In this document: piece after piece, positions 468 to 24,260 of the stretch
Layout: every line of letters begins with the position of its first letter
Position numbering within the stretch: position 1 is the first letter of the stretch
Assembly (NCBI RefSeq): GCF_045037415.1
Contig: NZ_CP173438.1
Direction: 5' to 3' (one strand)
DNA length: 64,000 nt
From: Escherichia coli
Lineage (GTDB): Bacteria > Pseudomonadota > Gammaproteobacteria > Enterobacterales > Enterobacteriaceae
The notes under the pieces: generated by a model
Seen by the model: the letters and a program-made list of their open reading frames with translations, nothing else
The model's database searches: none
What the model was told of the DNA's origin: nothing
Position numbers and translations under genes: made by a program

Positions 468-496
468 AAACAGAGAAACAGGCCGCCGAAGCGGCC
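468..496 (-). terminator. Rho-independent terminator after xdhD
   Basis: GC hairpin GGCCGCcgaaGCGGCC (481-496) followed on the minus strand by TGTTTCTCTGTTT, 10 nt after xdhD stop. Confidence 0.6.
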
Positions 497-505
497 ATTT
501 ATTAC

Positions 506-3376
506 TTATATTTTTTCCAGCGCGGTGAGTATTTTCTCCGGTGTGAAATGCCATTCGCGTAACCAGATGCCGCAGGCATCGTGAATTGCGGTAGCAATCG
601 CCGGAGCTGCGCCATTTACACCGATTTCCGAGATCGATTTCGCCCCGAATGGGCCGACTTTATCGTCGCTCGGCACCAGCACAGCGCGGAAATCACGCGG
701 AATGTCACCAATTTTCGGTGCGCCGTAACTGCGTAAATCACGCGTTAACGGGTGACCTTCGGCGTCATAAATGATCTCTTCGCTCATACTGTGGCCGATA
801 GCACGCAGGGTGGCACCGTAGATTTGTCCCAACGCTAACTCTGGATTGACCGGTGTACCGCAGTCCAGCAAGGCGTAGAATTTATCCAGGCGGATTTCAC
901 CCGTACGCGTGTTGACGGCAACTTCAGCGAAGTTTGCGCCATACGGGAAGGCGAAATCAGGTGTGATATAACTGCCAGTTCCCACCAGTGAACCAAAGCC
1001 GGTGCCGGTTTCGCCTTTATGGGCTATCTCTCCGAAACTAACTTCGCCTTTCTTGCCGCGAACGACGCCCGGCGTTGCTAGTTGAACATCTGCCACTGGC
1101 TCACCCAATATTTGCGCGCCGTGGAACAGGATTTTCTCCCGCAGATTTTCCGCTGCCAAACGCGCAGCGTTACCCGAGAAGCAAGTACCGGACGAGGCAT
1201 ATGCGCCTTTATCAAACAGTGCATGATCGGTATCACCAGAGATAACATGCACGTCCTGCGGTGGGCAGTGCAGCACTTCTGCTGCCAGTTTGGTCACCAC
1301 AGTATCCAGACCAGTACCAATATCCGCACCACCGGAATGAACGATAAAGGTGCCATCCGATTCCAGTTTGATCATGCAGTTAGCCTGATCGATATCCGGG
1401 ATACCCGATTTCTGCATGATAATGGCGACGCCGCGACCGATGTGCCAGTCACCATTTTGCGGTTTTGGTGAAGACCATTGGATCATCTCGCGACCCTGAC
1501 GCAGGATCTCTTCCAGTGCGCAGCTGGCGGCGGAAGGAACGGAGGTCGGCGCTTTACCTTCACCGATTGCACCGAGAATTTTCAGCTCTTGCCCTTCGTG
1601 TACCCGGTTACGTTCGATAATTTCCAGTTGGTCGATCTGTAACTGTTCAGCCAGTTCCGCTAATGCCATGGTGATAGCGAAGTTACCTTTCGGTGCGCCA
1701 TAACCCTGATAAGCACCATTTGGGCAAATGTTGCTGTAGTAGGTGGTGACCTGAAAATCGACGTTATCGCATGGATATAACGGCAGCGACAGCGCCGGTC
1801 CGTTACACGGTACGGTGAGTGAGTGGTTACCGTAAGGACCCGTGTTGGCGCGGAAATCCATCTTCACTGCCGTCAGGCGACCATCTTTTTTCGCGCCCAG
1901 TTTGACGGTGACTTTCGCGACGTGACGAGAGGTGTTAGCAATAAACTCTTCTTCACGGGTGTAGCGGAAAAGTACCGGACGCCCGGTCACGCAGGTTGCC
2001 CAGGCGCACACTTCTTCCAGCAGGATGTCCTGTTTGGAACCAAAACCGCCGCCAACTCGCTCTTTAATGACATGAACTTTATGCTGTTTCATGCCCACGA
2101 GGCGCGCGACCTGGCGGCGTAAGTGCCATGGTACCTGGGTGGAGGCGTGGATCACCAGACGATCGCCGTCCATACGGGTAAAGCAGATATGTGTTTCAGT
2201 CGGGCACTGCTGTGCCTGCGTTGAATTATAGGTTCGCTCAATGATCACATCGGCATCGGCAAAGCCTTTGTCCATATCGCCAATATGACCATGAATACTG
2301 GCGGCGATATTTTTGCGTGGGCGAGAACCGATCGGGAAGTTGATGATCATATGCTCGCCGCGCTGGGCTGCATGGCTGTTATCATCTTCCAGAGTATCTG
2401 GCGCACCAGCAACATACACCACCGGTTCATCGTGCACGACAGGCGCATCTTCCGCCATTGCCTCGTCAATCGACATTACCGGCTTAAGCACTTCATATTC
2501 AACGTCGATGAGCTTCAGTGCTTCGAGCGCAATGTCTTCACTTTCGGCTACTACCGCAGCAACGCGATCGCCGACGTGACGCATTTTCTTGCCGAACATT
2601 CGGCGGTCAAGCGGTGACGGTTCCGGTGCGCTCTGACCACCCGGGGTATAGTAAATATCCGGGCAATTCAGGTGAGTAATAACGTGAACGACGCCCGGTA
2701 AGGCTTCAGCTTTGCTGACATCCAGATGAGTAATCAGTGCGTGAGCGTGTGGGCTACGTAACATTTTAATGACGCAGGCGTCAGCCGTTACGCGATCTTC
2801 AACATAGCAGGGTTTCGCCTGCACCATTTTCGCGGCATCAGTTTTAGGATAATGCTTGCCAATGACTTCAAGGTCGTCACGGAAAGTCGGAGCGATATCA
2901 ATGGTGGCCTGCGGATTATTTTTACGTGCAACCGCCAGTTCAATGACCTGATAGTATTGCTGCCAGCCAGCATCGCGGCTAAACAGACCTGAGAGTGCGT
3001 CGTCGATCTCTTCGCGGGTAGGTGCGTCGATGCGATCGAGAAGATCGGTGATAATCAGAGCCGCAGCTGGATCGTTATAACCAGACTGCACCACGCCAAC
3101 ATCAACCATGGCCTGTTGAACCAGACTTAACTCATTCCATTTGCCCAGAGATTCTGCGGTACGAATATCTGCCTTCTCTAACTGTGCGGCGATAAGCAAG
3201 GACGCGTTAACGATATTACCGTTAAAGATAATTGCGTCAGAACCGGCAAACCCAAAGCCATCATCACTGTTGCGTACAGAGTGCATTCCCATGTTAAACA
3301 ACAGCTTTTGCACGTTTTCGCCTGGATTAACGGTTAGCTCCTGAGGCGCGCCATTTAAAGTAAAGTGGATGATCAT
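506..3376 (-). CDS. xdhD: Molybdopterin-binding hydroxylase subunit (xanthine dehydrogenase family) with N-terminal ferredoxin-like domain lacking Cys ligands
   Basis: 956 aa ORF; GGGFGSK motif, aldehyde oxidase/xanthine dehydrogenase-like body; 4-nt overlap with ygfM. Confidence 0.93.
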   Translation of the reverse strand: MIIHFTLNGAPQELTVNPGENVQKLLFNMGMHSVRNSDDGFGFAGSDAIIFNGNIVNASLLIAAQLEKADIRTAESLGKWNELSLVQQAMVDVGVVQSGYNDPAAALIITDLLDRIDAPTREEIDDALSGLFSRDAGWQQYYQVIELAVARKNNPQATIDIAPTFRDDLEVIGKHYPKTDAAKMVQAKPCYVEDRVTADACVIKMLRSPHAHALITHLDVSKAEALPGVVHVITHLNCPDIYYTPGGQSAPEPSPLDRRMFGKKMRHVGDRVAAVVAESEDIALEALKLIDVEYEVLKPVMSIDEAMAEDAPVVHDEPVVYVAGAPDTLEDDNSHAAQRGEHMIINFPIGSRPRKNIAASIHGHIGDMDKGFADADVIIERTYNSTQAQQCPTETHICFTRMDGDRLVIHASTQVPWHLRRQVARLVGMKQHKVHVIKERVGGGFGSKQDILLEEVCAWATCVTGRPVLFRYTREEEFIANTSRHVAKVTVKLGAKKDGRLTAVKMDFRANTGPYGNHSLTVPCNGPALSLPLYPCDNVDFQVTTYYSNICPNGAYQGYGAPKGNFAITMALAELAEQLQIDQLEIIERNRVHEGQELKILGAIGEGKAPTSVPSAASCALEEILRQGREMIQWSSPKPQNGDWHIGRGVAIIMQKSGIPDIDQANCMIKLESDGTFIVHSGGADIGTGLDTVVTKLAAEVLHCPPQDVHVISGDTDHALFDKGAYASSGTCFSGNAARLAAENLREKILFHGAQILGEPVADVQLATPGVVRGKKGEVSFGEIAHKGETGTGFGSLVGTGSYITPDFAFPYGANFAEVAVNTRTGEIRLDKFYALLDCGTPVNPELALGQIYGATLRAIGHSMSEEIIYDAEGHPLTRDLRSYGAPKIGDIPRDFRAVLVPSDDKVGPFGAKSISEIGVNGAAPAIATAIHDACGIWLREWHFTPEKILTALEKI

Positions 3377-4152
3377 ACGGCTTCCTCCCCAGCCTGTTGG
3401 CAGTCGGCATACAGGTCGGCTACCAGAACTCCCGTGATATAGCGTTTATAGGCCACGCTGCCCCGCAAATCTTCCTGCGGGAAAATGGCGTTGGCGACAG
3501 CCTGTTCCAGTGCATTGCCTTCCAGATTTTGAGTTTCAACATCATGCAGACGCAGTGCTTTACTGGCGACGCCATCCAGCGCAATTCGCATACCGTCGTG
3601 GTCTGTTATTGCAACGGCTGCCGTCACGACGGTTAAACCTGCCTGAGAACGGCTAATTTTGCGAGTCGCACAGGTGCGATACGGATCTTTAATGATAATT
3701 TCGGTTAACAGGCGATCGCATGGGCAGGCCAGGTAGTCCTCGATTGACAGCGTTTCGCCGTTGCCAAAAACCAGTTCAGCATCCAGTGCCAGCAGGACGG
3801 GAAGCAGCACTGACTCTTCTTGCCGGGCGGCAATTTCACCACCAATGGTCGACTGATTACGAACATGGCGAGAGTAGACAAAACCGAGAGCTTCCCGCAG
3901 TGCTGCAGGAATAAATCGCGCATCACGCAGTGGCTGCAAGCGAGACATTGCGCCAATTCGTAGTGCACCGTTATCCCAGTCAATCCAGTCCAGCTCCAGA
4001 TCCTGCAAGGAAATGGCAATCTTTTTATCGGTACGGGTTGGTGTAGCGTTGAGTTTGCTGCCCCCGGCGAACCAGACGGCTTCATCCTGGTAGCGGCGCT
4101 TCAGTTCCAGCGCCTGTTCGACAGAGTCGGGTCTGAAAAATTGTTCAATCAT
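3373..4152 (-). CDS. ygfM: FAD-binding subunit of molybdenum hydroxylase (CoxM/XdhB-like)
   Basis: 259 aa; FAGGSKL motif resembling AGGTDL of XdhB; ATGA overlap with xdhD. Confidence 0.9.
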   Translation of the reverse strand: MIEQFFRPDSVEQALELKRRYQDEAVWFAGGSKLNATPTRTDKKIAISLQDLELDWIDWDNGALRIGAMSRLQPLRDARFIPAALREALGFVYSRHVRNQSTIGGEIAARQEESVLLPVLLALDAELVFGNGETLSIEDYLACPCDRLLTEIIIKDPYRTCATRKISRSQAGLTVVTAAVAITDHDGMRIALDGVASKALRLHDVETQNLEGNALEQAVANAIFPQEDLRGSVAYKRYITGVLVADLYADCQQAGEEAV

Positions 4153-4202
4153 CGTCTTTCCTTAATTTCCCCTCTTCTCTGAAAGAAGAGGGGAGCTGTT
4201 AT

Positions 4203-5531
4203 TTATGCCAGCGCATCCATCCGACGCCACATACTGGCAGCGGCTTTTCTGGCTTGCGCATAAATGGAATCGCAATCGAAGTTAAACTGACGGTCTTCAT
4301 AGACCATCACACCATTGACCATCACGCTGTGAACGCTACCTGAGCCCATACCGAAAGCGATATGCCCGGCGATATTGTCTGCCAGCAGCGGCGTCGGCGA
4401 GTTGTAATCGCAAATGGTTAAATCGGCTTTGTAACCGGCTTCCAGAAGCCCAAATTTCGCGCCAAAGTTGCGGCTCATCAGTTCGTTGCCGTTAGCCAGT
4501 GCTTTGGCAAAACTGTCAGGCCACAGCGGGCCACCCGCATCGCGATGTTTAAAGAAGGCAAATTTCATCTCTTCAAACATGTCCGAACCAATGCCGTCCG
4601 TTCCCAACGCCAGATTGCGGATGTCGCTAAGGTGATGGTTGTAGCCGACATGGTTGTTCATGTTTGAACGGGCGTTATGCACCAGGAACGCATCGCGCTG
4701 ATTGAGTAGGACGATGTCATCTTTCGACAGGTACAGCCCATGAGCGACCAGCGTTTTGCTGTCGATGAGATCGAATTGCGCAAGTCGTGCCAGCAGGTCT
4801 TTGCCGTACCAATGGTGACTGTAGGAAACGTCGTAAAGGTCTTCCGCAACGTGAATATGCAAACCACGACCTGTGCTTTTCACGGCTTCACGCAGCATCT
4901 CCAGACCGGCATCCGGCACGGTAAACGGCGCGTGAGCGCCGATATGTGCTTCCACCAGATACGGCTCGGTTGCTGCTTTCTTCGCCTCATCAATCTGACG
5001 GGTGAAGCGGATGTTTTCTTCTACACCTTCCTGCAACTCTTTGATGCCGTTGTTACGGTCAGTAGTTTCAAAACAGGTCATCGCGCGCAGGCCAACTTTT
5101 AAAAATGCGTTGCGCAATGTGGAGAGCGACCCGTCGATATACGCCGGAGAGGCATGGTGATCGATAACCGATGTACATCCGCTCTTAATCGCTTCCAGGG
5201 AACAAATCAGTCCGCTGTAATAGAGCGACTCTTCATCAAGAGCGCGATCGAGCCGCCACCAGAGATTTTTCAGCGTTGAGATGAAATCCGGGCAGGGGGC
5301 GATGTTTGCCATAATTCCGCGGGAAAGCCCCGAGTAAAAATGGTTGTGCGAGCAGACAATTCCCGGCATCACAATCCGACCATGCATCTCTTTGTAGCTG
5401 GCATCGGGGTAGCGTTGCGTCAGGGCATCGCCGATAGCGACAATCACATCATTTTCGATGGCGATATCAACGCCTTCCTGCACTTTCGCCGGGTGTAACT
5501 GCACTGCGGTGACATTCTTCAGAATCAACAT
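4203..5531 (-). CDS. ssnA: Amidohydrolase-superfamily protein (chlorohydrolase/aminohydrolase-like)
   Basis: 442 aa; CSHNHFYSG metal-binding HxH motif; 2-nt gap to ygfK. Confidence 0.9.
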   Translation of the reverse strand: MLILKNVTAVQLHPAKVQEGVDIAIENDVIVAIGDALTQRYPDASYKEMHGRIVMPGIVCSHNHFYSGLSRGIMANIAPCPDFISTLKNLWWRLDRALDEESLYYSGLICSLEAIKSGCTSVIDHHASPAYIDGSLSTLRNAFLKVGLRAMTCFETTDRNNGIKELQEGVEENIRFTRQIDEAKKAATEPYLVEAHIGAHAPFTVPDAGLEMLREAVKSTGRGLHIHVAEDLYDVSYSHHWYGKDLLARLAQFDLIDSKTLVAHGLYLSKDDIVLLNQRDAFLVHNARSNMNNHVGYNHHLSDIRNLALGTDGIGSDMFEEMKFAFFKHRDAGGPLWPDSFAKALANGNELMSRNFGAKFGLLEAGYKADLTICDYNSPTPLLADNIAGHIAFGMGSGSVHSVMVNGVMVYEDRQFNFDCDSIYAQARKAAASMWRRMDALA

Positions 5532-5533
5532 GA

Positions 5534-8500
5534 TTACACCTCCACGCGGCCCAGCAGATAATGATGATGCTGGTGGACATGGCTAATGATGCGGCACATA
5601 TCGTTCAGCTCCGGTGGTACGTTGTTGAACTGACCTTCGCTGTCGATGTTTAACACCCAGCTTTGGTTATTCAGACGTACGCGTACCCGGCAATCTTCCA
5701 CAAGGAAGCCTGGGTTACTGCTGTTATCAAAGTCTTGCGACAGGCTGAAGACGGTGATTTTGTCTTTGTACGGTTTACCGTTCCACGGGCAGAATTGGGC
5801 GCAGTTGCCGCATTCGTTGCAGTAGGCATCGAGATGCAGCGTCTGGAAACGGTTCTGGAAGCCAGGAACCGCAATGGATACGTTGGCGCGGTTCGGGCAG
5901 ACATCCACACACTTGCTGCAAACGTAGTTACATTCAAGGCAGCGTGCGGCTTCCTGTGCGACAAACGCGTCACGATCGTCACTGTTCACCAGAGTGACAG
6001 AGATATCGCCTTTACGTTGATAGATTTCCGCCGGATTTACGTTGTTCCAGTATTTATCGTTCTGGTGGGAACGGATATTTTCCCGACTAAGGATGGTATC
6101 GGTCGCCCGACGCGCGGTTCCGACAGCAGCGACAATGGAGGATGGTCCGCGCTGTACGTCGCCGATCATAAAGACGTCAGTCAGACGCGTTTCGCCATTA
6201 TGGTCGACGTCTGGCCAGCCGTTTTTGTCCAGCGGCACGCCCATCGCATTCAGGGCTTCAGTATCCTGCTGTTCACCAATGGCGGTGATCAGACTGTCCA
6301 CATGCAGTGTTACTGTTTCGTTGGTTTCAACCGGACGGCGACGACCTTTCTCATCAGGTTCGCCAAGCGACATAACGCGCAAGGTTAAGGTGCCATCAGC
6401 ATCGAAACGTTCCGGATTATTCAGAAAACGGAACTCCACGCCGTCGTGCAACGCTTCTTCATACTCTTCGCGCCATGCGGGCATTTCTTGCAGTGAACGA
6501 CGGTAAACGACCGTTGCTTTTTCTACGCCTGGAACGCGTAACGCCGCACGAGCGCAGTCCATTGCGGTGTTACCCGCCCCGACAACGACCACATGTTTGC
6601 CCAGCTTGAGCGCGGTGCCCTTGTTGTATTCACGCAGGAAAGGGAGTGATTTCCAGACATTTTGGTTGTCGCCCGCCAGTTTCACACCGCTATTTTTATC
6701 AGTGCCGGTGGCAATCAGAACATAGTGGAAGCCCTGATTTTTTAACTGTTCAACGGTCAAATCGGGTGAGCAACCGTACTCAAATTTCACGCCGTGAGCG
6801 GCAACAAAATCGATATCGTGCTGAATTAACTCTGCAGGAATACGGAACTGAGGAATGATATTTTTCACCACGCCGCCCGCATTGGCTTCGCGTTCAAACA
6901 GCGTGACCGGATGGCCCGCTCTGGCAAGGAAGTAACCTGCGGCCAGACCCGCCGGACCTGCACCAATCACGGCTACCGGATGGCGTGAACCGGAACCGGC
7001 TGGTTTGTGCCAGCGTTGCTTATATTCATCCCAACCTTTTTCCAGGGCGACTTTTTTCAGTTCGCGGATATTCAGCGCACTGTCGTAATCCAGGCGGGTA
7101 CAGTTGTATTGGCACTGGTGATCGCAAATATGACCGGTAATGGCGGGCAGGGCGTTGCGTTGATAGATGAGTTCCAGCGCGTCGGCATAGCGGTGTTCGC
7201 CAAGCAGACGGATGTATTCCGGAATATCTTGCTTGATAGCGCAGGCAGTAACACAGGGGGCAACGTAGCAATCGGTCAGCGGCAGGTCTTCAGCCACTTC
7301 AATACGCTCTTCTGGCTTCCAGTGTTTCTGGGTGTATTCCATGGTTAACGCGTCTGCTGCCAGTCTGTTCAGTCGTTCGACGTCAACGTGGTTAAGCTCC
7401 CAGGCGTCGGAGCCTTCCAGCTCGCGCATGCAGGCACTTAAGCGCAGATAGCCGCCAGGTTTCAGCAGGTCGGTTGCCATAGTAATAGGGCGAATACCAG
7501 TATCAAAAATATCGCGGATAGTCAGCTGACTGGCACCACCGGAATAAGAAATGGGCAGTTTGCCGTCAAAGGCGCGAGAGAGAACTGCTGCAACGTTGAT
7601 GGAGAGCGGGAACAGCGCACGGCCTGACATATACATCTCTTCACCGGGCAGTGCGCCTTTATTGTTGATGGTGCCGAGAGTGTTAGTCAGTTTTACGCCA
7701 AAGCCGAGTGATTTTTCTTTTGCCAGTGCCATCAGGCGTTCCAGCATTTCCAGTGCTTGCGTCAGCTTGAGGTCGTGATCAAATGACTCTTCTTTTAAGC
7801 CGATGTAACCGAAACCGCAGACATCGAGGATCTCACGAACACGCGCGTACCCCAGTAAGGTCGGGTTGAGTTTCACAAAGGTGTTGAGTCCTTTTTCTTC
7901 CAGCATGTAGCGGCAAATGGCTTCGATTTCATGCGGAGGACAGCCGTGCATGGTGGAGAGGGTAACACCTTGTACCATGCTGGTGGGGATGCGAGCGGGT
8001 AAGGCTTGCAAGCTTTCGCGTTTTTCCTGCAATCCGTGGCGGGCTAAAAATGCCTCATCCTGGAGTAGCTTATTAAGTGCATCGCGGTATTGAGCGAATT
8101 TCGGATGGTCAGATGCGTCCATCATATTGTCGATGAACTGCTGCATCGGCGGTTGCTTAATACCTTCGAGGTTGTAACCGACGCTCATATTAAAGATGAA
8201 CGATTTACCGGAATCAGAAGGCTGGAACATCGCTTCGAGAAGGTGCAGGGCAAACCAGGCTTTGAGGTATTCATCCCAGGCTTTAAGCAGGGTAAATTCG
8301 GTAGACCATTCGGTGTTAAAGCACTCGTCTTCGGCATCGATACAGGGCTTTTCCAGCTCCAGACGGTCAAGAATTTGGACGGTTTTTAGTTCGATGAAGC
8401 GTCCGCCAGTCAGCCAGGAAGTGACAATATTTTGCGCGAGTTGCGTGTGCGGGCCAGCGGCAGGGCCGACGGGAGTGGCACAGGTTTCACCGAAGACGCT

Positions 8501-8632
8501 AACAGTTTTACTTTTTACGGGTGAGTAAAACTGTTGCTCGGGAATACCAAAGATTGAGCGTTGTTGTTGGTATTCATCAAATATGCGCGTCAAAAGTTCC
8601 TCAAACGGAATGGGACGCATAATATCCCCCAT
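5534..8632 (-). CDS. ygfK: Large Fe-S flavoprotein oxidoreductase (GltD-like NAD(P)/FAD domain plus ferredoxin-type 4Fe-4S motifs)
   Basis: 1032 aa; VAVIGAGPAGLAAGYFLARAG dinucleotide fold; CLECNYVCSKCVDVCP cluster motif near C-terminus. Confidence 0.92.
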   Translation of the reverse strand: MGDIMRPIPFEELLTRIFDEYQQQRSIFGIPEQQFYSPVKSKTVSVFGETCATPVGPAAGPHTQLAQNIVTSWLTGGRFIELKTVQILDRLELEKPCIDAEDECFNTEWSTEFTLLKAWDEYLKAWFALHLLEAMFQPSDSGKSFIFNMSVGYNLEGIKQPPMQQFIDNMMDASDHPKFAQYRDALNKLLQDEAFLARHGLQEKRESLQALPARIPTSMVQGVTLSTMHGCPPHEIEAICRYMLEEKGLNTFVKLNPTLLGYARVREILDVCGFGYIGLKEESFDHDLKLTQALEMLERLMALAKEKSLGFGVKLTNTLGTINNKGALPGEEMYMSGRALFPLSINVAAVLSRAFDGKLPISYSGGASQLTIRDIFDTGIRPITMATDLLKPGGYLRLSACMRELEGSDAWELNHVDVERLNRLAADALTMEYTQKHWKPEERIEVAEDLPLTDCYVAPCVTACAIKQDIPEYIRLLGEHRYADALELIYQRNALPAITGHICDHQCQYNCTRLDYDSALNIRELKKVALEKGWDEYKQRWHKPAGSGSRHPVAVIGAGPAGLAAGYFLARAGHPVTLFEREANAGGVVKNIIPQFRIPAELIQHDIDFVAAHGVKFEYGCSPDLTVEQLKNQGFHYVLIATGTDKNSGVKLAGDNQNVWKSLPFLREYNKGTALKLGKHVVVVGAGNTAMDCARAALRVPGVEKATVVYRRSLQEMPAWREEYEEALHDGVEFRFLNNPERFDADGTLTLRVMSLGEPDEKGRRRPVETNETVTLHVDSLITAIGEQQDTEALNAMGVPLDKNGWPDVDHNGETRLTDVFMIGDVQRGPSSIVAAVGTARRATDTILSRENIRSHQNDKYWNNVNPAEIYQRKGDISVTLVNSDDRDAFVAQEAARCLECNYVCSKCVDVCPNRANVSIAVPGFQNRFQTLHLDAYCNECGNCAQFCPWNGKPYKDKITVFSLSQDFDNSSNPGFLVEDCRVRVRLNNQSWVLNIDSEGQFNNVPPELNDMCRIISHVHQHHHYLLGRVEV

Positions 8633-8704: not shown

Positions 8705-8720
8705 AGCAACAATCGCACCA
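8705..8720 (-). promoter_or_regulatory. Candidate sigma-54 (-24/-12) promoter upstream of ygfK
   Basis: Minus strand reads TGGTGCGATTGTTGCT; GG and GC dinucleotides 10 bp apart, matches TGGCAC-N5-TTGCW at 14 of 16 positions; about 70 nt upstream of ygfK start. Confidence 0.4.
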
Positions 8721-8783
8721 CTCTTGCCAGGTTTGACGGGAAATATAAAAAAATGTGAGGCGGCTCGAAACTTAATGGCTTTT

Positions 8784-8799
8784 TGTGAATGAACTCACA
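8784..8799. promoter_or_regulatory. CRP-like palindrome TGTGA-N6-TCACA (CRP site or enhancer-binding-protein UAS)
   Basis: Sequence TGTGAATGAACTCACA, perfect inverted half-sites, about 70 bp upstream of the candidate -24 element. Confidence 0.4.
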
Positions 8800-8953
8800 G
8801 GTGCCAAATGAGAATTAAAATCACTCCTGAAAATTATTATTGCCAGCCCATTTATCACTTTTTCTCTTTTCTCAAAATCAGTGATTCCTTATCATTATGA
8901 TAAAGAGTGCTGGAGGGATTAAATATTTGAACGCAATCGTTTAACTACGTTTT

Positions 8954-9532
8954 CTAAATTTCAGTATACCTTTTCTTCGCTGTAATAAAGTCGTCCGGAG
9001 TATCAATATCTAAAATTATTTCTGCATTTTCTATTTCGACGGAATAATGTTCTCCCATAAGGAGTGCCTGACGCATATTGGTGACATTGGGGCGCTGGAT
9101 TGCCTGCATCAGGCATGGTTTTGACACTAAAATCGGATGGCCGGGGATGCCATTATGGAGTGGCAGTATTGCGCCATCATTTCGTAACGACCAGATTTTT
9201 CTAAAAATATCGATGGTGAGGGTTGGCATATCTCCGTGGGTGAGAAAACAATGTTCTGTTTGCACCGCGGGTACTGCGGCCTTTACTGATGTCAGTAAAC
9301 CCTGCGCATAATCTGGGTTGTGGATAATAGTGATATTGCTCTGGTTCGCATAACGTTCGTGCAGTTCATTACCACGATAGCCGGTGACTAAAATAATTCG
9401 GCTACAAAACTGCAACGCATTTTTGATACTTGTATCAAGAATTGTTCCCTGTTGCCAGGGTAACATCATTTTCCATTGCCCCATTCTTGATGATAATCCT
9501 GCGGCGGTAATTATACAGTCGATGGCTGACAT
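8954..9532 (-). CDS. mocA: Molybdenum cofactor cytidylyltransferase (MobA-like nucleotidyltransferase)
   Basis: 192 aa; N-terminal AIDCIITAAGLSSRMG nucleotidyltransferase motif. Confidence 0.88.
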   Translation of the reverse strand: MSAIDCIITAAGLSSRMGQWKMMLPWQQGTILDTSIKNALQFCSRIILVTGYRGNELHERYANQSNITIIHNPDYAQGLLTSVKAAVPAVQTEHCFLTHGDMPTLTIDIFRKIWSLRNDGAILPLHNGIPGHPILVSKPCLMQAIQRPNVTNMRQALLMGEHYSVEIENAEIILDIDTPDDFITAKKRYTEI

Positions 9533-12119: not shown

Positions 12120-13052
12120 TTACTGACAAATCACCGTTCCGGTTTTGCCTTCAATCCCTTCTTTCGCTTTGCTCAATACGGTAATCAGTGCTTCACGACC
12201 TGCGCGAGAGCGAGCAAACGAGGCGGCAGCTTCCACTTTAGGCAGCATAGAACCTTTCGCAAAATGACCTTCTTCGATAAAGCGTTCAGCATCACTTAAT
12301 GACAGGCGATCGAGCCACTGTTCATTCTCTTTTCCGAAGTTAATGGCCACTTTTTCTACCGCAGTCAGAATGATCAGCATATCGGCATCGATCATTTCTG
12401 CTAAACGGGCACTGGCCCAGTCTTTATCGATAACCGCGCTGGCACCACGCAGATGGTTACCTTCACGAATAACAGGGATACCACCACCGCCAACGGTGAT
12501 CACCACCTGTCCGGCATCTACCAGAGCTTTAACCGTTTCTTTTTCAATGATATCAACCGGTTTTGGCGAAGCAACGACACGACGATAGCCGCGACCCGCA
12601 TCTTCTTTCAGAGTGTAACCCTGTTTTGTCAGTAGCTCTGCTTCTTGCTCGGTAAAGAACGAACCAATCGGCTTGGTCGGGTTGAGGAATGCCGGATCGT
12701 TAGCATCGACTTCGACCTGGGTAACCAGCGTTGCTACAGGTTTATTAATGCCACGAGAAAGCAGTTCTTCTCTTAAGGCGTTTTGTAGATCGTAACCAAT
12801 ATAACCCTGGCTTAAGGCAACACAGACAGACATCGGCAGCATTGGCGAGTGCGCTTCAGTTTTTGCGGCAGCTTCAAAGGCCTGGTTAATCATGCCCACC
12901 TGTGGCCCGTTGCCATGAGTGACGATGACCTCATGTCCCTGGGCAATTAAATCAACAATTGCCTGAGAAGTAATTTTTACCGCTTTCATTTGTCCGGCCA
13001 GGTCATCGCCCAGCGCATTCCCGCCCAGGGCGAGAACAATTTTCTTACTCAT
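12120..13052 (-). CDS. yqeA: Carbamate kinase
   Basis: 310 aa; N-terminus MSKKIVLALGGNALG typical of carbamate kinases. Confidence 0.93.
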   Translation of the reverse strand: MSKKIVLALGGNALGDDLAGQMKAVKITSQAIVDLIAQGHEVIVTHGNGPQVGMINQAFEAAAKTEAHSPMLPMSVCVALSQGYIGYDLQNALREELLSRGINKPVATLVTQVEVDANDPAFLNPTKPIGSFFTEQEAELLTKQGYTLKEDAGRGYRRVVASPKPVDIIEKETVKALVDAGQVVITVGGGGIPVIREGNHLRGASAVIDKDWASARLAEMIDADMLIILTAVEKVAINFGKENEQWLDRLSLSDAERFIEEGHFAKGSMLPKVEAAASFARSRAGREALITVLSKAKEGIEGKTGTVICQ

Positions 13053-13099
13053 TTTTCCTCACTCATCATTCTTGATTGTGTATAGATCCCTGGCAGTGG

Positions 13100-14485
13100 T
13101 TAGAGCACGGGAGGGACAAACGGTTTGCGTCGCAGGAAACGACCTCGCCCGGCTTTGCCTGTAAAGGTGCCGTCGCAGAAAATCGTTTCACCACGGGATA
13201 AGGTTCTGACAATCGCGCCCTGACAGGTAAAACCCTCCCATGGCGAGTAGTCAGCGTTGTCGTGGAGATGGCGATGCTGAATTTGTTGGCTCTGACGTGG
13301 GTCTATAATCACCACGTCGCCATCGGAACCGGGCGCTAATAATCCTTTTTGTGGCCACAGGCCAAACAGCCTGGCGGGCATTGCACTGGTTAACTCAACA
13401 AAACGCTCCGGTGAGATACGCCCCGTCATCACGCCACTGGAGAACAGCAGTTGCATGCGGTTCTCCACACCGGGTAAGCCATTTGGGCAGCGGCTGAAAT
13501 CGCCTTTAGAAATTTGCAGGCGTTGAGCCATCGAGAAGGTGCAGTGATCGGTTGCCACCACGTCAATCGCACCATCGCTGATGCCACACCACAGTTTGTC
13601 CTGCTCGCGTACGTTACGCAGCGGTGGGCTAAGAATGAACTTCATGCCATCTTCTGTATCGTAACTGCGTTCGTCCAACAGGAGATATTGTGGGCAGGTT
13701 TCAACCCAGACTGGCTGGTGATTCGCACGGGCAAGACGCAGATAATCCAGACCTAAGCCGTTAGACAGGTGCACGATATAGAGCGGGGCGTTACCGGCAA
13801 TTTGTGCCAGGTTAATCATGCGGGCGATGGCTTCCGCTTCGCATTCCAGAGGTCGACTCAAGGCATGATAACGCGGCGCGGTTAACCCTGCGGCGATAAA
13901 CTCCGCCCGCTTGCTGGCGATAGCTGCGTCATTTTCCGGGTGCACGGTGGTCAGCGCGCCGGACTCATGCAAGCGGCGTAATGCCTGCAACACTTCATCA
14001 TCGTTGAGTTTATATTGATAGGTTAAATAGAGTTTAAAACTGCTCAGTCCTTCCTCAACCATCATCGGAATTTCGTCGAGGATAGCGTGATTAATATGTT
14101 GAATGACACCGTGAAAGCTGTAGTCGATGACTGCTTTGTGGGCGGCATAACCGCGATAAACTTCCAGTTGATGGCGTAACCGGCAGCCATTTGGGCCAAA
14201 TCCCATATGGTCAATAATGGTTGTTGTACCGCCACACGCAGCTGCGCGGGTACCGGTAAAAAAATCATCACAACTGCGCGCGATGCCGACATCAATATTG
14301 AAATGCGTATGGACATCCACGCCGCCAGGGAAAACGTAACAGCCAGAGGCATCAATTTCTTCGCAAGGGAGTTGCGGCGAAATATCGGTACCCAACTGGC
14401 GAACAATCCCGCTTTCAATCAGCAAATCCTGCTTCGCCTGTCCATCTGCATTAACAACAATGCCGTTTTTTATCAATACGCGCAT
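13100..14485 (-). CDS. hyuA: Cyclic amidohydrolase (D-phenylhydantoinase/dihydropyrimidinase family)
   Basis: GGVDVHTHF metal-binding motif; ATG at 14485 with GGAG RBS preferred over the upstream TTG of the 465-aa track ORF, giving 461 aa. Confidence 0.92.
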   Translation of the reverse strand: MRVLIKNGIVVNADGQAKQDLLIESGIVRQLGTDISPQLPCEEIDASGCYVFPGGVDVHTHFNIDVGIARSCDDFFTGTRAAACGGTTTIIDHMGFGPNGCRLRHQLEVYRGYAAHKAVIDYSFHGVIQHINHAILDEIPMMVEEGLSSFKLYLTYQYKLNDDEVLQALRRLHESGALTTVHPENDAAIASKRAEFIAAGLTAPRYHALSRPLECEAEAIARMINLAQIAGNAPLYIVHLSNGLGLDYLRLARANHQPVWVETCPQYLLLDERSYDTEDGMKFILSPPLRNVREQDKLWCGISDGAIDVVATDHCTFSMAQRLQISKGDFSRCPNGLPGVENRMQLLFSSGVMTGRISPERFVELTSAMPARLFGLWPQKGLLAPGSDGDVVIIDPRQSQQIQHRHLHDNADYSPWEGFTCQGAIVRTLSRGETIFCDGTFTGKAGRGRFLRRKPFVPPVL

Positions 14486-14500
14486 AGCAAACTCCAAAAA

Positions 14501-14520
14501 CCCTCCGGTGAACCGGAGGG
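14501..14520 (-). promoter_or_regulatory. Intercistronic hairpin with U-run overlapping the hyuA ribosome-binding site
   Basis: Minus strand: CCCTCCGGttcaCCGGAGGG, then TTTTT, then GGAG and ATG of hyuA. Confidence 0.45.
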
Positions 14521-14537
14521 GAATAAGTGAAGAGTAA

Positions 14538-15749
14538 TTATTCGGTTGCCAGCCAGCTTAATGGGATTGCAGCGTACATAGCGGCACAGGTTACCAGGTG
14601 AGATTTCCAGGTTTTTTCGTTTGGCGCGTGCGCTTCCGGTTCTTTACCGGGGCCAAAACCGATGACCGGAATGCCGTGGCGACCCATGATGGATACGCCA
14701 TTAGTCGAGAAGGTCCACTTATCAACGACAGGCGCTTTACCAAACAGCCCTTCATAAGCATTCACCAGTGCTTTAACGGTGAAGTGATCTTCTTCCACTT
14801 TCCAGGTCGGGAAGTAGCATTCGGTTGGGTAAACCAGGCCAGTCCAGGACGGGCGGTCGTAGTTGTACATAGAAACGACAGCATTCGCTTTTTGTACTGC
14901 AGGCAGGGCACGGATCTCGTCCAGCGCGCCTTCCCAGGTTTCGCCCCAGGTCAGACGACGGTCGATTGAAACTGCGCAGCTGTCTGCGACAGCGCAACGG
15001 CTTGGGGAGGTGAAGAAAATTTCAGAAACGGTGAGGGTGCCTTTGCCGAGGAATTCGTCATAACCCAGACGTTGGGAGAGTTCTTGTAATTCGCCAAGAA
15101 TCGGACCCATTTTGAAAATGGCGTTATCACCGCGTTCTGGTGCCGAACCGTGGCAGCTAACACCCTGAACATCAATACGAATTTCCATACGACCGCGTTG
15201 ACCACGGTATACCTGGCAGTCGGTTGGTTCGGTACTGACCACAAATTCCGGGCGAATGCCGGATTGTTCAATAATGTACTGCCAGCACAGGCCGTCGCAG
15301 TCTTCTTCCTGCACAGTACCGGTAACCAGCAGGGTATATTCATCTTCCAGACCGAGATCTTTAATGATTTTACCGGCATATACCATAGACGCCATGCCGC
15401 CTTCCTGGTCGGAAGTACCACGACCACCGATCAGCTCGTCGGTTTCCATGCCTTCATACGGATCGAAGTCCCAGTTTTTGATGTTGCCAATGCCGACTGT
15501 ATCGATATGAGCGTCCATTGCCACCAGACGCGGGCCGTGGCCGATATAACCGAGAACGTTGCCCATTGGGTCGATTTCAACTTTATCGAAGCCGACTTTT
15601 TCCATCTCTTCTTTAATACGATGTACTACGCGTTTCTCGTCGCAGCTTTCACTGGGAATAGCAACCATATCGCGCAGGAAGCGAGTCATGTCTGCCTGGT
15701 AATCTTTTGCTTTTTCAAGAATCAGTTTGAATGGAATATTCTTAGCCAT
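14538..15749 (-). CDS. ygeY: M20-family metallopeptidase/deacylase (ArgE/DapE-like)
   Basis: 403 aa; M20 family assignment rests mainly on length and operon position (by recall); no specific motif checked. Confidence 0.9.
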
Positions 15750-15806
15750 TATTTTTCTCCAGATTTTTTACTCCCCGTTTTGCAGGGAGCAGTTCCAATA
15801 GGGTGA

Positions 15807-17003
15807 TTAAGGTGCTACAGCGTGTTTGCCTTCCCAGACAACTTCGCGGTAGTGCTTCACGTCGGTGTCGCCTTCAGTGCTGATAACCAGCACCACGGCA
15901 TCTTTGTTCAGCGCCAGTTTTTCCATCAGGCTTTGACGTTGCGGGTGATAATGAACCGCTGCGAGAACGCCCAAACCGACAGCGCCGGATTCACCGGAGA
16001 TGATGCGCGGGTCGTTGCCGTACGGATTACCCAGCACGCGCATACCTAATGCGGCAACGCTGTCCTGGCAGGAGATGAATTGGGTGGCGCAGTTACGTAG
16101 GATTTCCCAGCCCAGCGGGTTAGGTTCGCCGCAGGCCAGGCCCGCCATGATGGTGGCCATATCACCGCCAACGTTGACGATGTCGCCTTTGACGCCGGAG
16201 CGATAAATACAGTCAGCTTTGTCAGGTTCAACAATAATGCTGTGCAGATTTTGCGGGCTATAGACGTCGACCAGATAACCCAGCACACCACCGGCCATTG
16301 CACCGACACCTGCTTGCAGCAGAACGTGTGTCGGGGTTACGCCCATTTCACGCATTTGCTCGACGGCTTCATCCGCCAGTGTTGCGTAGCCTTGCATGAT
16401 CCAGGTTGGGATTTTGGTGTAACCTTCCCATGCCGTGTCCTGTACCACTTCCCAGCCGTGCTGCTGCGCGTGTTGCATGGTCAGGCGAACGGTATCGTCA
16501 TAGTTCATATCCGTGACGATGCACTCGGCACCGAGGTTTAGAATGGCGTCAACGCGTTCCTGAGCAGAACCTTTCGGCATGTAAATCACCGCATTCTGTC
16601 CGAGTTGCTGAGCGGCCCATGCCACACCGCGCCCGTGGTTGCCGTCGGTGGTGGTCGCGAAAGTCATTTTTTCGCCAATGGCATTTTTCAGGTGCTCAAA
16701 TGATAGCGTTTCGATATCAAGATGATATTTTTCACACAATAATTGAGCGATGGCGTATGCGCCGCCGAGCATTTTGAAGGCGTTCAGACCGAAGCGTTTT
16801 GATTCGTCCTTAACGAGAATTTTCTTTACACCAAACAGGTTTGCGAGATCGTCCAGCGCACAAAGCGGTGTTGGGCGATAACCAGCAATTTTCTGGTGGA
16901 ACTGGCGTGCCAGTTTTGCCTGGCTTTGCGAAAAAAGCGGTGATGTTTCGCCGTTGAAAAATTTGTTATCGGCGATATCAATCTTTAATGAGAAAACGGA
17001 CAT
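15807..17003 (-). CDS. ygeX: PLP-dependent diaminopropionate ammonia-lyase
   Basis: 398 aa; fold-type II PLP enzyme features; position between ygeY and ygeW. Confidence 0.9.
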   Translation of the reverse strand: MSVFSLKIDIADNKFFNGETSPLFSQSQAKLARQFHQKIAGYRPTPLCALDDLANLFGVKKILVKDESKRFGLNAFKMLGGAYAIAQLLCEKYHLDIETLSFEHLKNAIGEKMTFATTTDGNHGRGVAWAAQQLGQNAVIYMPKGSAQERVDAILNLGAECIVTDMNYDDTVRLTMQHAQQHGWEVVQDTAWEGYTKIPTWIMQGYATLADEAVEQMREMGVTPTHVLLQAGVGAMAGGVLGYLVDVYSPQNLHSIIVEPDKADCIYRSGVKGDIVNVGGDMATIMAGLACGEPNPLGWEILRNCATQFISCQDSVAALGMRVLGNPYGNDPRIISGESGAVGLGVLAAVHYHPQRQSLMEKLALNKDAVVLVISTEGDTDVKHYREVVWEGKHAVAP

Positions 17004-17060
17004 ATCCTATCCTTTTGGCCTCTGGAAATAGAGGGCCGACCAGCTGATCGGCCCGAGGGG

Positions 17061-18251
17061 TTATTTCACGCGTTCTTGCGCTTCTTTCAGCAGTTGCTCG
17101 AGCAGTGCACCTGGTTTGGCGTATTTACGGGACAGGATCATCGCGGCGATGATATAAGGCTTCCAGCTGGCTTCTTTGTAGGTAGCGATACGGTATTTTT
17201 CGAATACGCCTTCAGTCACTTCACCTTCTTTGCAGGATACGCCGCTGATATCAGCTGGCAGGCAGTGCATGTACAGGGCTTCGCCATCACGGGTCAGCTC
17301 CATCATCTCTTCGGTACAATGCCAGTCTTTGTGCTGTGCGTTCTGTGCCAGACACTGTTTTTCCAGCGCTTTCAGTCCTTCGTGATCGTTCGCACGCAGC
17401 AGTTCAGTACGCTCTTCCATCACTTTGTAAGGTGCCCAGGACTTCGGATAAACGATGTCTGCGTCTTTGAAGGCTTCTTCCATGCTGGTGACCTGACGGA
17501 AGCTACCACCGGAGGCTTTAGCATTGTTTTTAGCAACTTCAACGACATCCGGGATCAGGTCGTAGCCTTCCGGATGGGCCAGGGTGACATCCATACCGAA
17601 GCGGGTCATCAGACCGATGATGCCTTGTGGTACAGAGAGCGGTTTGCCATAGCTTGGGGAGTAGGCCCAGGTCATGGCGATTTTTTTACCTTTCAGGTTT
17701 TCCAGTGAACCAAAGTGTTCACGTAACCATGCCAGATCAGCCATTGATTGAGTCGGGTGGTCAATATCGCATTGCAGGTTCACTAAAGCCGGACGCTGCG
17801 GCAGCACACCCTGCTTGTAACCGTCATCAAGTGCAGCGCCAACTTCACGCATATAGGCGTTGCCTGCGCCCAGATACATATCGTCGCGAATACCGATAGC
17901 GTCAGCGCAGAAGGAGATCATATTGGCGGTTTCACGCACGGTTTCGCCGTGAGCGATTTGTGATTTACCTTCGTCAAGATCTTGTTGTGCAAGGCCGAGC
18001 AGGTTAAGCGCGGAAGCATAAGAGAAGCGGGTACGGGTGGAATTGTCGCGGAATACGGAAATACCTAATCCACTATTAAAGACTTTGGTTGAGATGTTTT
18101 CAGCACGCAGTGCTTTTAACGCGGCGGCAACGTCCAGTACTTGTTTCAGTTCGTCTGGCGTCTGTTCCCACGTTAACAAAAAATCTTTTTCATGCAGGTG
18201 AGAGGTCAGCGAATTGATATCCTTAATCAGCTCATTAACAGTTTTCATCAT
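17061..18251 (-). CDS. ygeW: Transcarbamylase of unknown specificity (ATCase/OTCase fold)
   Basis: 396 aa; carbamoyl-phosphate motif STRTR and HCLP motif both present. Confidence 0.93.
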   Translation of the reverse strand: MMKTVNELIKDINSLTSHLHEKDFLLTWEQTPDELKQVLDVAAALKALRAENISTKVFNSGLGISVFRDNSTRTRFSYASALNLLGLAQQDLDEGKSQIAHGETVRETANMISFCADAIGIRDDMYLGAGNAYMREVGAALDDGYKQGVLPQRPALVNLQCDIDHPTQSMADLAWLREHFGSLENLKGKKIAMTWAYSPSYGKPLSVPQGIIGLMTRFGMDVTLAHPEGYDLIPDVVEVAKNNAKASGGSFRQVTSMEEAFKDADIVYPKSWAPYKVMEERTELLRANDHEGLKALEKQCLAQNAQHKDWHCTEEMMELTRDGEALYMHCLPADISGVSCKEGEVTEGVFEKYRIATYKEASWKPYIIAAMILSRKYAKPGALLEQLLKEAQERVK

Positions 18252-18343
18252 AAAGTCCCGATAGTGGAATGACAGGCAAAGTGGTTTATTTCACTGTGAC
18301 GTGCCAAAGTGATTGGTGTTTTCACAGCTATACCTCGGACTAA

Positions 18344-18357
18344 CAATAAGTGTGCCA
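18344..18357 (-). promoter_or_regulatory. Weak candidate sigma-54 promoter upstream of ygeW
   Basis: Minus strand TGGCACACTTATTGTT: perfect -24 TGGCAC but -12 reads TTGT instead of TTGC. Confidence 0.25.
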
Positions 18358-18400
18358 GAATTATCCACGCGGCTGCGAAAGGCTAATTTGACGGATAATG

Positions 18401-18416
18401 TGTGGGGTTGATCACA
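18401..18416. promoter_or_regulatory. CRP-like palindrome in ygeW-ygeV divergent region
   Basis: TGTGGGGTTGATCACA (TGTGg-N6-TCACA). Confidence 0.3.
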
Positions 18417-21897: not shown

Positions 21898-21907
21898 GAT
21901 GTTATCC

Positions 21908-24166: not shown

Positions 24167-24260
24167 GCATGATTCACCCGTAGCGGTTGCTTCCCGCGCT
24201 TCCATAGAAATCCCCTCGGTTTGAACATTTGGTTCTTATGGCAAAGATTTAGTCTTAGCA

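Follow-up and report, generated by a model that had tools for sequence, protein, structure and literature searches.

In 2025, two independent studies solved the anaerobic degradation of uric acid by a reductive pathway that runs through 2,8-dioxopurine (PMC12507026; bioRxiv 10.1101/2025.04.24.650524). The pathway was reconstituted to pyruvate (bioRxiv 10.1101/2025.04.24.650524), and isotope tracing followed uric acid to acetate via the genes concerned. The published enzymes were those of E. coli K-12 and Nissle, not of the exact strain analyzed here. Gut bacteria that carry the gene cluster remove uric acid, and work is under way to build the pathway into probiotic E. coli as a treatment for hyperuricaemia and gout. 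The system formed by dihydropyrimidine dehydrogenase (DPD) and dihydropyrimidinase (PydA/PydB; mammalian DPD; PreT-PreA of E. coli) has a logic in common with it, namely reduction of a ring followed by hydrolysis. A further system for comparison is 4-hydroxybenzoyl-CoA reductase, a member of the xanthine oxidase family that runs the chemistry of this family in the reductive, dehydroxylating direction.

Organization and conservation of the locus

The window, that is the whole stretch of Escherichia coli DNA that was analyzed, covers 64,000 nucleotides. Open reading frames place four genes at positions 506-8632, all on the minus strand, exactly as a previous sequence-only reading had described them:

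5534..8632, minus strand: ygfK, 1032 aa, NAD(P)H:2,8-dioxopurine reductase (DOPOR)
4203..5531, minus strand: ssnA, 442 aa, amidohydrolase opening the pyrimidine ring of reduced 2,8-dioxopurine
3373..4152, minus strand: ygfM, 259 aa, FAD-binding subunit carrying electrons from NADH to XdhD
506..3376, minus strand: xdhD, 956 aa, fused 2x[2Fe-2S] and molybdenum-cofactor subunit for C6 dehydroxylation of uric acid

The ygfK-ssnA junction reads TAA-tc-ATG, with a gap of 2 nt and the ssnA ribosome-binding site (GGAGG) located within ygfK, and the start of xdhD overlaps the stop of ygfM by 4 nt (ATGA). The third junction, between ssnA and ygfM, is a 50-nt spacer (4153-4202) containing a 12-bp hairpin. 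The operon is made of two translationally coupled pairs with this spacer between them. The sequence-only reading had reported tight coupling from the 2-nt and 4-nt junctions; both were correctly observed, but it had omitted the third and, because the ssnA-ygfM spacer is 50 nt long, tight coupling holds inside each pair and not over all four genes.

Neighbouring genes were named from the annotation of the SK1144 region, which is 99.99% identical to the window, and the open reading frames agree with these names:

8954-9532, minus strand: mocA, cofactor maturation
9636-10406, plus strand: yqeC, cofactor maturation
10454-12079, plus strand: yqeB, cofactor maturation
12120..18248, minus strand: yqeA/arcC, hyuA, ygeY, ygeX/dpaL and ygeW, downstream pathway genes whose enzyme roles come from published work
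20544-24205: xdhABC, the E. coli xanthine dehydrogenase, in the same window

According to the same annotation, guaD and purine transporter genes adjoin the operon. The ygfK-ssnA-ygfM-xdhD block was found over at least 80% of its length in 5168 of 5426 complete E. coli genomes, as a single copy in each, and it is 95-100% identical among E. coli. Gene order is kept in Klebsiella and Atlantibacter. Edwardsiella keeps ssnA-ygfM-xdhD, ygfK not being called as a gene there, and Citrobacter rodentium has ygfK-ssnA without adjoining ygfM-xdhD. The YgfK-SsnA and YgfM-XdhD pairs are separable modules in other species. Distant YgfK homologues adjoin either amidohydrolases or ygeW/yqeA/ygeX-like and molybdenum-hydroxylase genes.

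An entry module for anaerobic uric acid degradation

We consider it very probable (about 90%) that these genes form a sigma-54-dependent operon whose products carry out the first three reactions, i.e. the entry module, of the reductive 2,8-dioxopurine pathway by which uric acid is degraded anaerobically. Among the proteins expected of a 2,8-dioxopurine cluster, all four entry proteins are present (an XdhD-type protein, YgfM, YgfK and SsnA), and hyuA, ygeW, yqeA, ygeY as well as ygeX, together with yqeB, yqeC and mocA, are all nearby. In the first step, electrons would pass from NADH to the FAD of YgfM, then to both N-terminal [2Fe-2S] clusters of XdhD and on to the molybdenum cofactor, and XdhD-YgfM would take the C6 oxygen off uric acid, producing 2,8-dioxopurine. 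In the second step, NAD(P)H would be the electron donor of YgfK; by way of the FAD domain and the Fe-S clusters, the electrons would arrive at an FMN held in the barrel at the N-terminus, and the enzyme would reduce (dearomatise) the pyrimidine ring of 2,8-dioxopurine, much as DPD reduces uracil. [quoted passage not shown] Steps one to three have been shown with E. coli enzymes and mutants (PMC12507026; bioRxiv 10.1101/2025.04.24.650524). The electron paths within XdhD-YgfM and YgfK are those suggested by domain content and a structure model.

A role in anaerobic urate breakdown, proposed by the sequence-only reading, is therefore correct according to both 2025 studies, and the urate deletion mutants and purified-enzyme assays that it had called for are essentially published already. 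Its statement that the operon had no assigned substrate has been outdated since then: uric acid is the substrate of XdhD-YgfM, 2,8-dioxopurine that of YgfK, and the reduced product of the latter that of SsnA. The protein types that it had recognized (a GltD-like Fe-S flavoprotein, an amidohydrolase, a FAD subunit and a molybdopterin enzyme) agree with the TIGRFAM and Pfam matches given below.

XdhD and YgfM

YgfM scored 488 bits against TIGR03312 (FAD subunit) and XdhD 2117 bits against TIGR03313, both above the curated cut-offs. The domains detected in XdhD (Fer2_2, the a/b hammerhead Ald_Xan_dh_C, MoCoBD_1 and MoCoBD_2) belong to the xanthine oxidase family only. E918, near the C-terminus, aligns with the glutamate of the 'SLGEPP' motif of XdhA, and from what is known of the xanthine oxidase family we take it to be the catalytic glutamate. 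XdhD also contains an 11-residue insertion with E606 that is absent from XdhA, in agreement with the published active-site argument (PMC12507026).

Purified E. coli XdhD supplied with NADH converts uric acid to 2,8-dioxopurine, and carries with it through purification a protein of about 30 kDa that is putatively YgfM; when xdhD is deleted, uric acid builds up and 2,8-dioxopurine is not formed (PMC12507026). The hydroxylation that the sequence-only reading had assigned to XdhD thus has its direction reversed, since the enzyme, with NADH, strips uric acid of its oxygen at C6. The separation from XdhABC that it had proposed was borne out by mutant data, in which XdhABC and XdhD-YgfM act sequentially and are not redundant (PMC12507026).

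NCBIfam and RefSeq name these proteins 'putative selenate reductase subunit', and it could be supposed that YgfK, YgfM and XdhD are a selenate reductase, as this name says. The genes do co-occur phylogenetically with selenium-cofactor genes (PMC2276186). However, selenate is neither needed by YgfK nor stimulates its activity (bioRxiv 10.1101/2025.04.24.650524), and XdhD carries domains of the xanthine oxidase family exclusively. Characterized selenate reductases are, instead, members of the DMSO-reductase family. We regard a selenate reductase as extremely improbable; the selenium link is more readily accounted for by a molybdenum cofactor that depends on selenium, a dependence reported for the XdhD-type enzyme of Clostridium sporogenes, than by selenate reduction.

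YgfK and SsnA

YgfK scored 1779 bits against TIGR03315, above the curated cut-off. It starts with a barrel (residues 1-445), followed by Fer4_20 (453-532), a GltD-like FAD/NAD(P)H domain (552-839, Pyr_redox_2) and two C-terminal 4Fe-4S motifs (CxxCxxCxxxCP, 898-912 and 938-948). Pfam returned nothing for the N-terminal 445 residues, either within the full-length protein or as residues 1-445 alone, and gave no significant match to this domain in any of 22 family members. A profile search of the domain against PDB sequences produced non-significant matches only (OMP decarboxylase, E 0.096; dihydroorotate dehydrogenase (DHODH), E 2.5). A structure model of residues 1-445 (pLDDT 89.5) was matched by Foldseek to the FMN barrels of DPD and DHODH with E values of 1e-9 to 1e-7 and probability 1.0 (DPD, E 9e-10; DHODH, E 3e-8, TM 0.6). 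With the full-length model (pLDDT 93.4), Foldseek matches were dominated by the GltD/NfnB-like core and the N-terminal domain was not resolved. By its predicted fold, the N-terminal domain is probably a DPD/DHODH-like FMN barrel. Residues K83 and C231 of the barrel are invariant.

Recombinant E. coli YgfK reduces, with NADPH, solely the 2,8 isomer among xanthine isomers (bioRxiv 10.1101/2025.04.24.650524). YgfK and SsnA together convert 2,8-dioxopurine to ureidomethyl-hydantoin with NAD(P)H, and deletion of ygfK abolishes the formation of ureidomethyl-hydantoin (PMC12507026). The two studies differ in detail: in one, YgfK was active alone and specific for NADPH (bioRxiv 10.1101/2025.04.24.650524), whereas in the other product was obtained only with SsnA, and with NAD(P)H (PMC12507026). 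The structures of the YgfK and SsnA products are provisional (bioRxiv 10.1101/2025.04.24.650524).

SsnA matches TIGR03314 (738 bits, above the curated cut-off) and NF005540, and is an Amidohydro_1 protein; the DNA encodes an HxH metal-binding motif, SHNHF. Published assays confirmed that it opens the ring, as the sequence-only reading had suggested.

These data also bear on the proposal that XdhD oxidatively hydroxylates an N-heterocycle, with YgfK as its electron-transfer partner in one four-protein complex. The GltD/NfnB-like core of YgfK does resemble electron-transfer modules of other enzymes, the four genes would have one promoter and one terminator in common (see below), and the C. sporogenes homologue of XdhD also runs oxidatively in vitro (bioRxiv 10.1101/2025.04.24.650524). 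Against this, YgfK turns over 2,8-dioxopurine by itself and has, in the structure model, a substrate barrel of its own; XdhD with the protein of about 30 kDa taken as YgfM works on NADH without YgfK; mutant phenotypes put XdhD before YgfK, in separate steps (PMC12507026); and C. rodentium has ygfK-ssnA with no ygfM-xdhD beside it. This proposal is very unlikely and already largely refuted. The routing of electrons through YgfK, part of the sequence-only reading, falls with it: YgfK itself reduces 2,8-dioxopurine, with its own predicted FMN barrel, and XdhD would be fed by YgfM.

The selectivity of YgfK further argues against a suggestion made in a 2025 review of guanidine metabolism, which also claimed regulation by NrdR, that the operon degrades oxidised or modified guanine derivatives and that uric acid is not its main substrate (PMC12623156). 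The adjoining guaD and purine transporter genes would fit such a role. The suggestion was speculative and made without enzyme data (PMC12623156), YgfK selects 2,8-dioxopurine among the xanthine isomers (bioRxiv 10.1101/2025.04.24.650524), and the isotope label runs from uric acid to acetate via these very genes. We hold it to be highly improbable and retain uric acid as the substrate of the module.

Promoter region, terminator and regulation

The following features were located around the operon and upstream of ygeW:

8705..8721, minus strand: sigma-54 promoter GTGGTGCGATTGTTGCT (-24 GG / -12 GC), upstream of ygfK
8784..8799: candidate CRP site, perfect match to TGTGA-N6-TCACA, upstream of ygfK
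8889..8903: TTATCATAATGATAA, a perfect palindrome, some 170-185 nt upstream of the sigma-54 promoter
470..496, minus strand: intrinsic terminator GGCCGCttcgGCGGCC followed by a T-rich tail, 3' of xdhD
18342-18358: ygeW sigma-54 site, corresponding to ChIP site OS30 (PMC4591121)
18558-18572: TTCTCATATTGATAT, weak relative of the palindrome, upstream of ygeW

The ygfK promoter has the same sequence as the K-12 ChIP-seq site OS31, which was assigned to ygfK (Bonocora et al. 2015, PMC4591121), and the promoter block is conserved in Klebsiella oxytoca. The sigma-54 pattern with 2 mismatches occurs 67 times in the window against 47 expected, a mild enrichment on its own. An early choice made by eye, TGGCAAGAGTGGTGCG, was replaced by the overlapping ChIP-mapped site. 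Nowhere else in the 64 kb window is the CRP consensus matched without a mismatch; the candidate site is also conserved in K. oxytoca and fits the glucose repression reported for the pathway (PMC12507026). The palindrome TTATCATAATGATAA is likewise conserved upstream in K. oxytoca, its flanks having diverged, and is a candidate activator binding site, perhaps for YgeV; its sharing between the upstream regions of ygfK and ygeW is suggestive, with weak statistical support (5 matches against 1.6 expected). Relatives of a second conserved block upstream of ygfK, AACGATTGCGTT, did not exceed chance.

In a search for an internal promoter of ygfM-xdhD, 11 sigma-70-like matches were obtained in the region against 9.2 expected, which is no more than chance, none of them near the spacer. 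Co-expression data place all of ygfK, ssnA, ygfM and xdhD in the YgeV iModulon. One strand, an upstream sigma-54 ChIP site, a 3' terminator and a shared iModulon would fit a single transcription unit; a conserved hairpin, however, divides the two gene pairs. ChIP, co-expression and sequence motifs suggest that they are expressed from the sigma-54 promoter with input from YgeV and CRP.

A hairpin between ssnA and ygfM

4167..4195, minus strand: 12-bp hairpin in the ssnA-ygfM spacer, dG -20.2 kcal/mol, z -4.6

In E. coli no U-run follows this hairpin, and the ygfM ribosome-binding site comes directly after it. A hairpin in this spacer is conserved across Enterobacterales: two E. coli alleles differ by compensatory changes, the strain analyzed here having the minority allele, and Klebsiella, Atlantibacter and Edwardsiella have unrelated hairpins at the same position. 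No Rfam family matched the hairpin or the rest of the operon. We tentatively suggest, while considering it less likely than not, that the hairpin might function as an RNA element within the operon, either by terminating part of the transcripts or by stabilising a processed 3' end. It would then set different levels of the YgfK-SsnA and YgfM-XdhD pairs and, with the CRP site and the palindrome, could help to explain strain differences in uric acid consumption, which published work ascribes to regulation.

Comparison with known systems

The function of the operon has been known since 2025, so that the finding is real but not new; because its importance was recognized and its chemistry solved, no new biology is added here. 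The database names 'putative selenate reductase' and 'putative aminohydrolase' trail the literature. Compared with the published pathway (DOPDH, DOPOR, SsnA) of E. coli K-12 and Nissle, the locus has the same genes, order, neighbours (including ygeV) and sigma-54 site, without substantial difference. The C. sporogenes version differs in that it is without YgfM and its first step does not use NAD(P)H. XdhABC belongs to the same enzyme family and regulon as XdhD and has its own sigma-54 site; the molybdenum domains of XdhA and XdhD are 29% identical, and mutants place XdhA at the conversion between xanthine and uric acid (PMC12507026), whereas XdhD takes away the oxygen at C6 of uric acid.

By sequence, the closest solved structure to the XdhD molybdenum domain is 4-hydroxybenzoyl-CoA reductase (E 6.6e-80). 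That enzyme has an aromatic CoA thioester as its substrate, takes its electrons from ferredoxin and consists of three separate subunits, whereas XdhD has its [2Fe-2S] and molybdenum parts in one chain and receives electrons from NADH via YgfM. The core of YgfK matches DPD by sequence (E 2e-30), and YgfK would follow the logic of DPD, in which NADPH, FAD and Fe-S clusters supply an FMN barrel that reduces the C=C bond of a uracil-type ring. However, the DPD order (Fe-S, FAD, NADPH, FMN barrel, Fe-S) is not that of YgfK: the barrel comes first in YgfK, whereas in DPD it has the NADPH domain before it and the C-terminal Fe-S domain after it. The YgfK barrel is too diverged from that of DPD for Pfam detection, and its substrate is a bicyclic purine, unlike that of DPD. 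SsnA, in turn, is an amidohydrolase of the chlorohydrolase/deaminase branch and not of the dihydropyrimidinase family, unlike the hydrolytic partner of DPD.

Organisation and conservation of the ygfK operon

The window is E. coli chromosome. The four genes ygfK, ssnA, ygfM and xdhD occupy a region (506-8632) that several complete genomes match with 100% identity. Of 5426 complete E. coli genomes, 5168 contain at least 80% of this region, each in a single copy. The following features were delimited.

8632..5534, minus strand: ygfK ORF
5531..4203, minus strand: ssnA ORF
4153-4202, minus strand: ssnA-ygfM spacer, with a hairpin at 4167-4195
4152..3373, minus strand: ygfM ORF
3376..506, minus strand: xdhD ORF

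Direct reading of the junctions showed that ygfK and ssnA are joined as TAA-tc-ATG, with a GGAGG ribosome-binding site lying within ygfK, and that ygfM and xdhD overlap by ATGA, here too with GGAGG upstream. Since the ORFs and these junctions are as read directly, the gene names, coordinates and two junction lengths of the sequence-only reading are correct. Its description of four tightly coupled genes holds for these two junctions and left out the third, a 50-nt spacer between ssnA and ygfM. For each of the four proteins, the score against an NCBIfam equivalog or subfamily model exceeded the curated cut-off by a wide margin. Pfam domains were detected in YgfK (Fer4_20, 453-532; Pyr_redox_2, 552-839; weak signals for a C-terminal 4Fe-4S dicluster) and in XdhD (Fer2_2, a/b hammerhead, MoCoBD_1 and MoCoBD_2). 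NCBIfam and Pfam thus confirmed the labels GltD-like Fe-S flavoprotein, amidohydrolase, FAD subunit and molybdopterin hydroxylase.

Other features of the window were also recorded. In xdhB (minus strand), a 1-nt deletion is present at 21038 in a C-run a few codons before the stop (C6, versus C7 in SK1144), which lengthens the ORF from 292 aa to 304 aa and makes it overlap xdhC by 41 nt. The surrounding 101 nt are identical in at least six other complete genomes, and the variant may be either genuine or a recurring homopolymer sequencing error. Rfam matches corresponded to the tandem OmrA/OmrB small RNA genes (36534-36615 and 36731-36818, plus strand) and a tRNA-Gly(CCC) gene (25453-25526, plus strand), both commonplace in E. 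coli and without connection to the operon.

Published function of the operon

Full-text searching returned two independent studies from 2025 in which the function of the operon is solved; the system is already known. Li et al. (Life Metab 2025, PMC12507026) found that a protein of about 30 kDa, assumed to be YgfM, accompanies E. coli XdhD through purification, and that XdhD converts uric acid to 2,8-dioxopurine ('yanthine') with NADH. YgfK and SsnA, with NAD(P)H, then produced ureidomethyl-hydantoin from 2,8-dioxopurine, with 5-ureido-dihydrouracil as a minor product. An xdhD deletion mutant accumulated uric acid on xanthine feeding and gave no 2,8-dioxopurine. A ygfK deletion mutant did not form ureidomethyl-hydantoin (PMC12507026). 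The same pathway emerged from the work of Liu et al. (bioRxiv 10.1101/2025.04.24.650524), who combined isotope tracing with mutants in C. sporogenes and E. coli MG1655. In their hands recombinant YgfK from E. coli was selective for the 2,8 isomer, which it reduced with NADPH, SsnA opened the six-membered ring, and the entire pathway was reconstituted as far as pyruvate; two of the intermediates have provisional structures. The two studies are at odds on the cofactor (NADH versus NADPH) and on whether SsnA is needed for YgfK turnover.

These publications supersede the statement that the operon has no assigned substrate, and both bear out the proposed role in anaerobic urate breakdown. Ring opening by the amidohydrolase had likewise been anticipated and is the reaction described for SsnA (bioRxiv 10.1101/2025.04.24.650524). 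The proposed hydroxylation by XdhD had the wrong direction, as the enzyme is reductive and dehydroxylates C6 of uric acid; nor do electrons reach XdhD through YgfK, which catalyses the second step of the pathway.

The database name of YgfK suggests a selenate reductase, and a selenium association has been reported (PMC2276186). This assignment is not supported: selenate is neither required by nor beneficial to YgfK and has no effect on it (bioRxiv 10.1101/2025.04.24.650524), and XdhD belongs to the xanthine oxidase family. A selenium-dependent molybdenum cofactor, demonstrated through selD for the C. sporogenes enzyme and putative for its E. coli counterpart, accounts better for the selenium association. 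A 2025 review (PMC12623156) speculates that oxidised-guanine compounds are substrates of the operon, but presents this proposal without data. What is absent from the cited literature is confined to minor regulatory features.

A structured spacer separates two coupled modules

The 50-nt ssnA-ygfM spacer contains a 12-bp hairpin (dG -20.2 kcal/mol, z -4.6), and none of 200 shuffled sequences was as stable. In E. coli no U-run follows the stem on its 3' side, and the ygfM ribosome-binding site lies immediately downstream. Whereas the entire operon shows 95-99% identity within E. coli, the 121 nt surrounding the spacer are bimodal, with at least 99% identity in 1198 genomes and 80-95% in 3636. The window carries the minority allele (at least 99% match in 1198 of 4835 genomes). 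Alignment showed that the stem differences between the two alleles are compensatory (U-A to C-G, C-G to A-U or G-U, U.G to C-G), and the predicted stability is equal in both. The same position was compared in the following loci.

L002-L004: spacer hairpin comparison loci
L005, 8330-8375: spacer hairpin comparison locus
L006 (Edwardsiella tarda), 8330-8385: spacer hairpin comparison locus
L011, 4330-4376: spacer hairpin comparison locus

Hairpins of unrelated sequence occupy this position in other genera. Those of Atlantibacter hermannii and Edwardsiella tarda are strong, the latter being followed by a U-run; that of Klebsiella oxytoca is weaker (z -1.55) and, with 17 of 200 shuffled sequences as stable, cannot be told apart from such controls. 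Translation is thus coupled within ygfK-ssnA and within ygfM-xdhD, and a conserved, hairpin-bearing spacer links these two modules. The hairpin, of which we found no mention in the cited literature, may act in partial termination or as a 3' stabiliser after processing.

In Citrobacter rodentium (L010, 1-7335), ygfK and ssnA overlap by 4 nt and are followed by a canonical bidirectional terminator and convergent ygfS/ygfT-like genes, and not by ygfM-xdhD. The E. coli operon is therefore made up of two separable modules. Distant YgfK homologues (45-51% identity over the N-terminal domain) adjoin two amidohydrolase genes, and others adjoin genes for a carbamoyltransferase, carbamate kinase, PLP-enzyme and molybdenum hydroxylase, in agreement with the published neighbourhood analysis (PMC12507026). 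A Clostridiales sigma-54 regulon with ygeW-ygfK-ssnA-ygeY had been reconstructed earlier, its function being labelled 'unknown'.

In the Edwardsiella tarda locus (L006, 3799-7000), the index has no ygfK call. The longest ORF there, 1016 aa at 3799-6849, stops some 150 nt ahead of ssnA; a frameshift near the C-terminus, a truncated gene or faulty assembly could be the cause.

Promoter region and terminator

The following sites were identified upstream of ygfK and ygeW.

8721..8705, minus strand: sigma-54 promoter of ygfK, GTGGTGCGATTGTTGCT, identical letter for letter to ChIP-seq site OS31
8784-8799: perfect CRP consensus by sequence match, TGTGAATGAACTCACA, upstream of the ygfK sigma-54 promoter
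8889-8903: perfect 15-nt palindrome, TTATCATAATGATAA, upstream of the ygfK sigma-54 promoter
18342-18358, minus strand: sigma-54 promoter of ygeW, CTGGCACACTTATTGTT, identical to ChIP site OS30 (Bonocora et al. 2015)

OS31 was assigned to ygfK by Bonocora et al. 2015 (PMC4591121), who also reported separate sigma-54 sites for xdhA, ygeW and ygfT. The YgeV iModulon includes all four operon genes together with xdhABC, ygeWXY, hyuA, ygfT and uacT. At the other end, xdhD is followed by a GC-rich hairpin and a T-rich tail. The CRP consensus is the only perfect one within the 64 kb window, and the predicted site fits the published glucose repression (PMC12507026). The upstream region of K. oxytoca retains the sigma-54 block, the CRP site and the palindrome, the sequence between them having diverged; the palindrome might tentatively be viewed as a candidate activator site. 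Upstream of the ygeW promoter we noted a weak relative of this palindrome (18558-18572) and a CRP-like site with one mismatch (18401-18416).

YgfK and XdhD compared with known enzymes

Residues 1-445 of YgfK, termed a domain of unknown function by Liu et al. (bioRxiv 10.1101/2025.04.24.650524), gave no Pfam match whatever, and no significant match was obtained in 22 diverse family members. An exhaustive search for relatives yielded 1445 representative proteins (E ≤ 0.001); among the matches listed, most have about 1000 residues. Full-length YgfK was modelled with a pLDDT of 93.4 and a pTM of 0.91, and the isolated N-terminal domain with a pLDDT of 89.5. The latter model matched pig dihydropyrimidine dehydrogenase structures (E ~1e-9) and class 2 dihydroorotate dehydrogenases (E ~3e-8, TM ~0.6 on target), which argues that YgfK is related to dihydropyrimidine dehydrogenase but has a permuted domain order, the predicted FMN barrel coming first. 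This relationship also accounts for the ability of YgfK to act by itself on a uracil-like ring, and it supports a published modelling statement (PMC12507026). K83, N106, C231 (in the motif S-T-M-H-G-C-P) and N256 are invariant in 55 homologues, as are two C-terminal CxxCxxCxxxCP motifs; any roles assigned to these residues are putative.

By sequence, the closest solved relative of XdhD is 4-hydroxybenzoyl-CoA reductase. That enzyme serves as the textbook example of reductive dehydroxylation in this family. XdhD is 29% identical to XdhA, which is encoded in the same window, and has an 11-residue insertion (597-607). This insertion contains E606, the residue singled out by Li et al. as present in XdhD and lacking in XdhA (PMC12507026).
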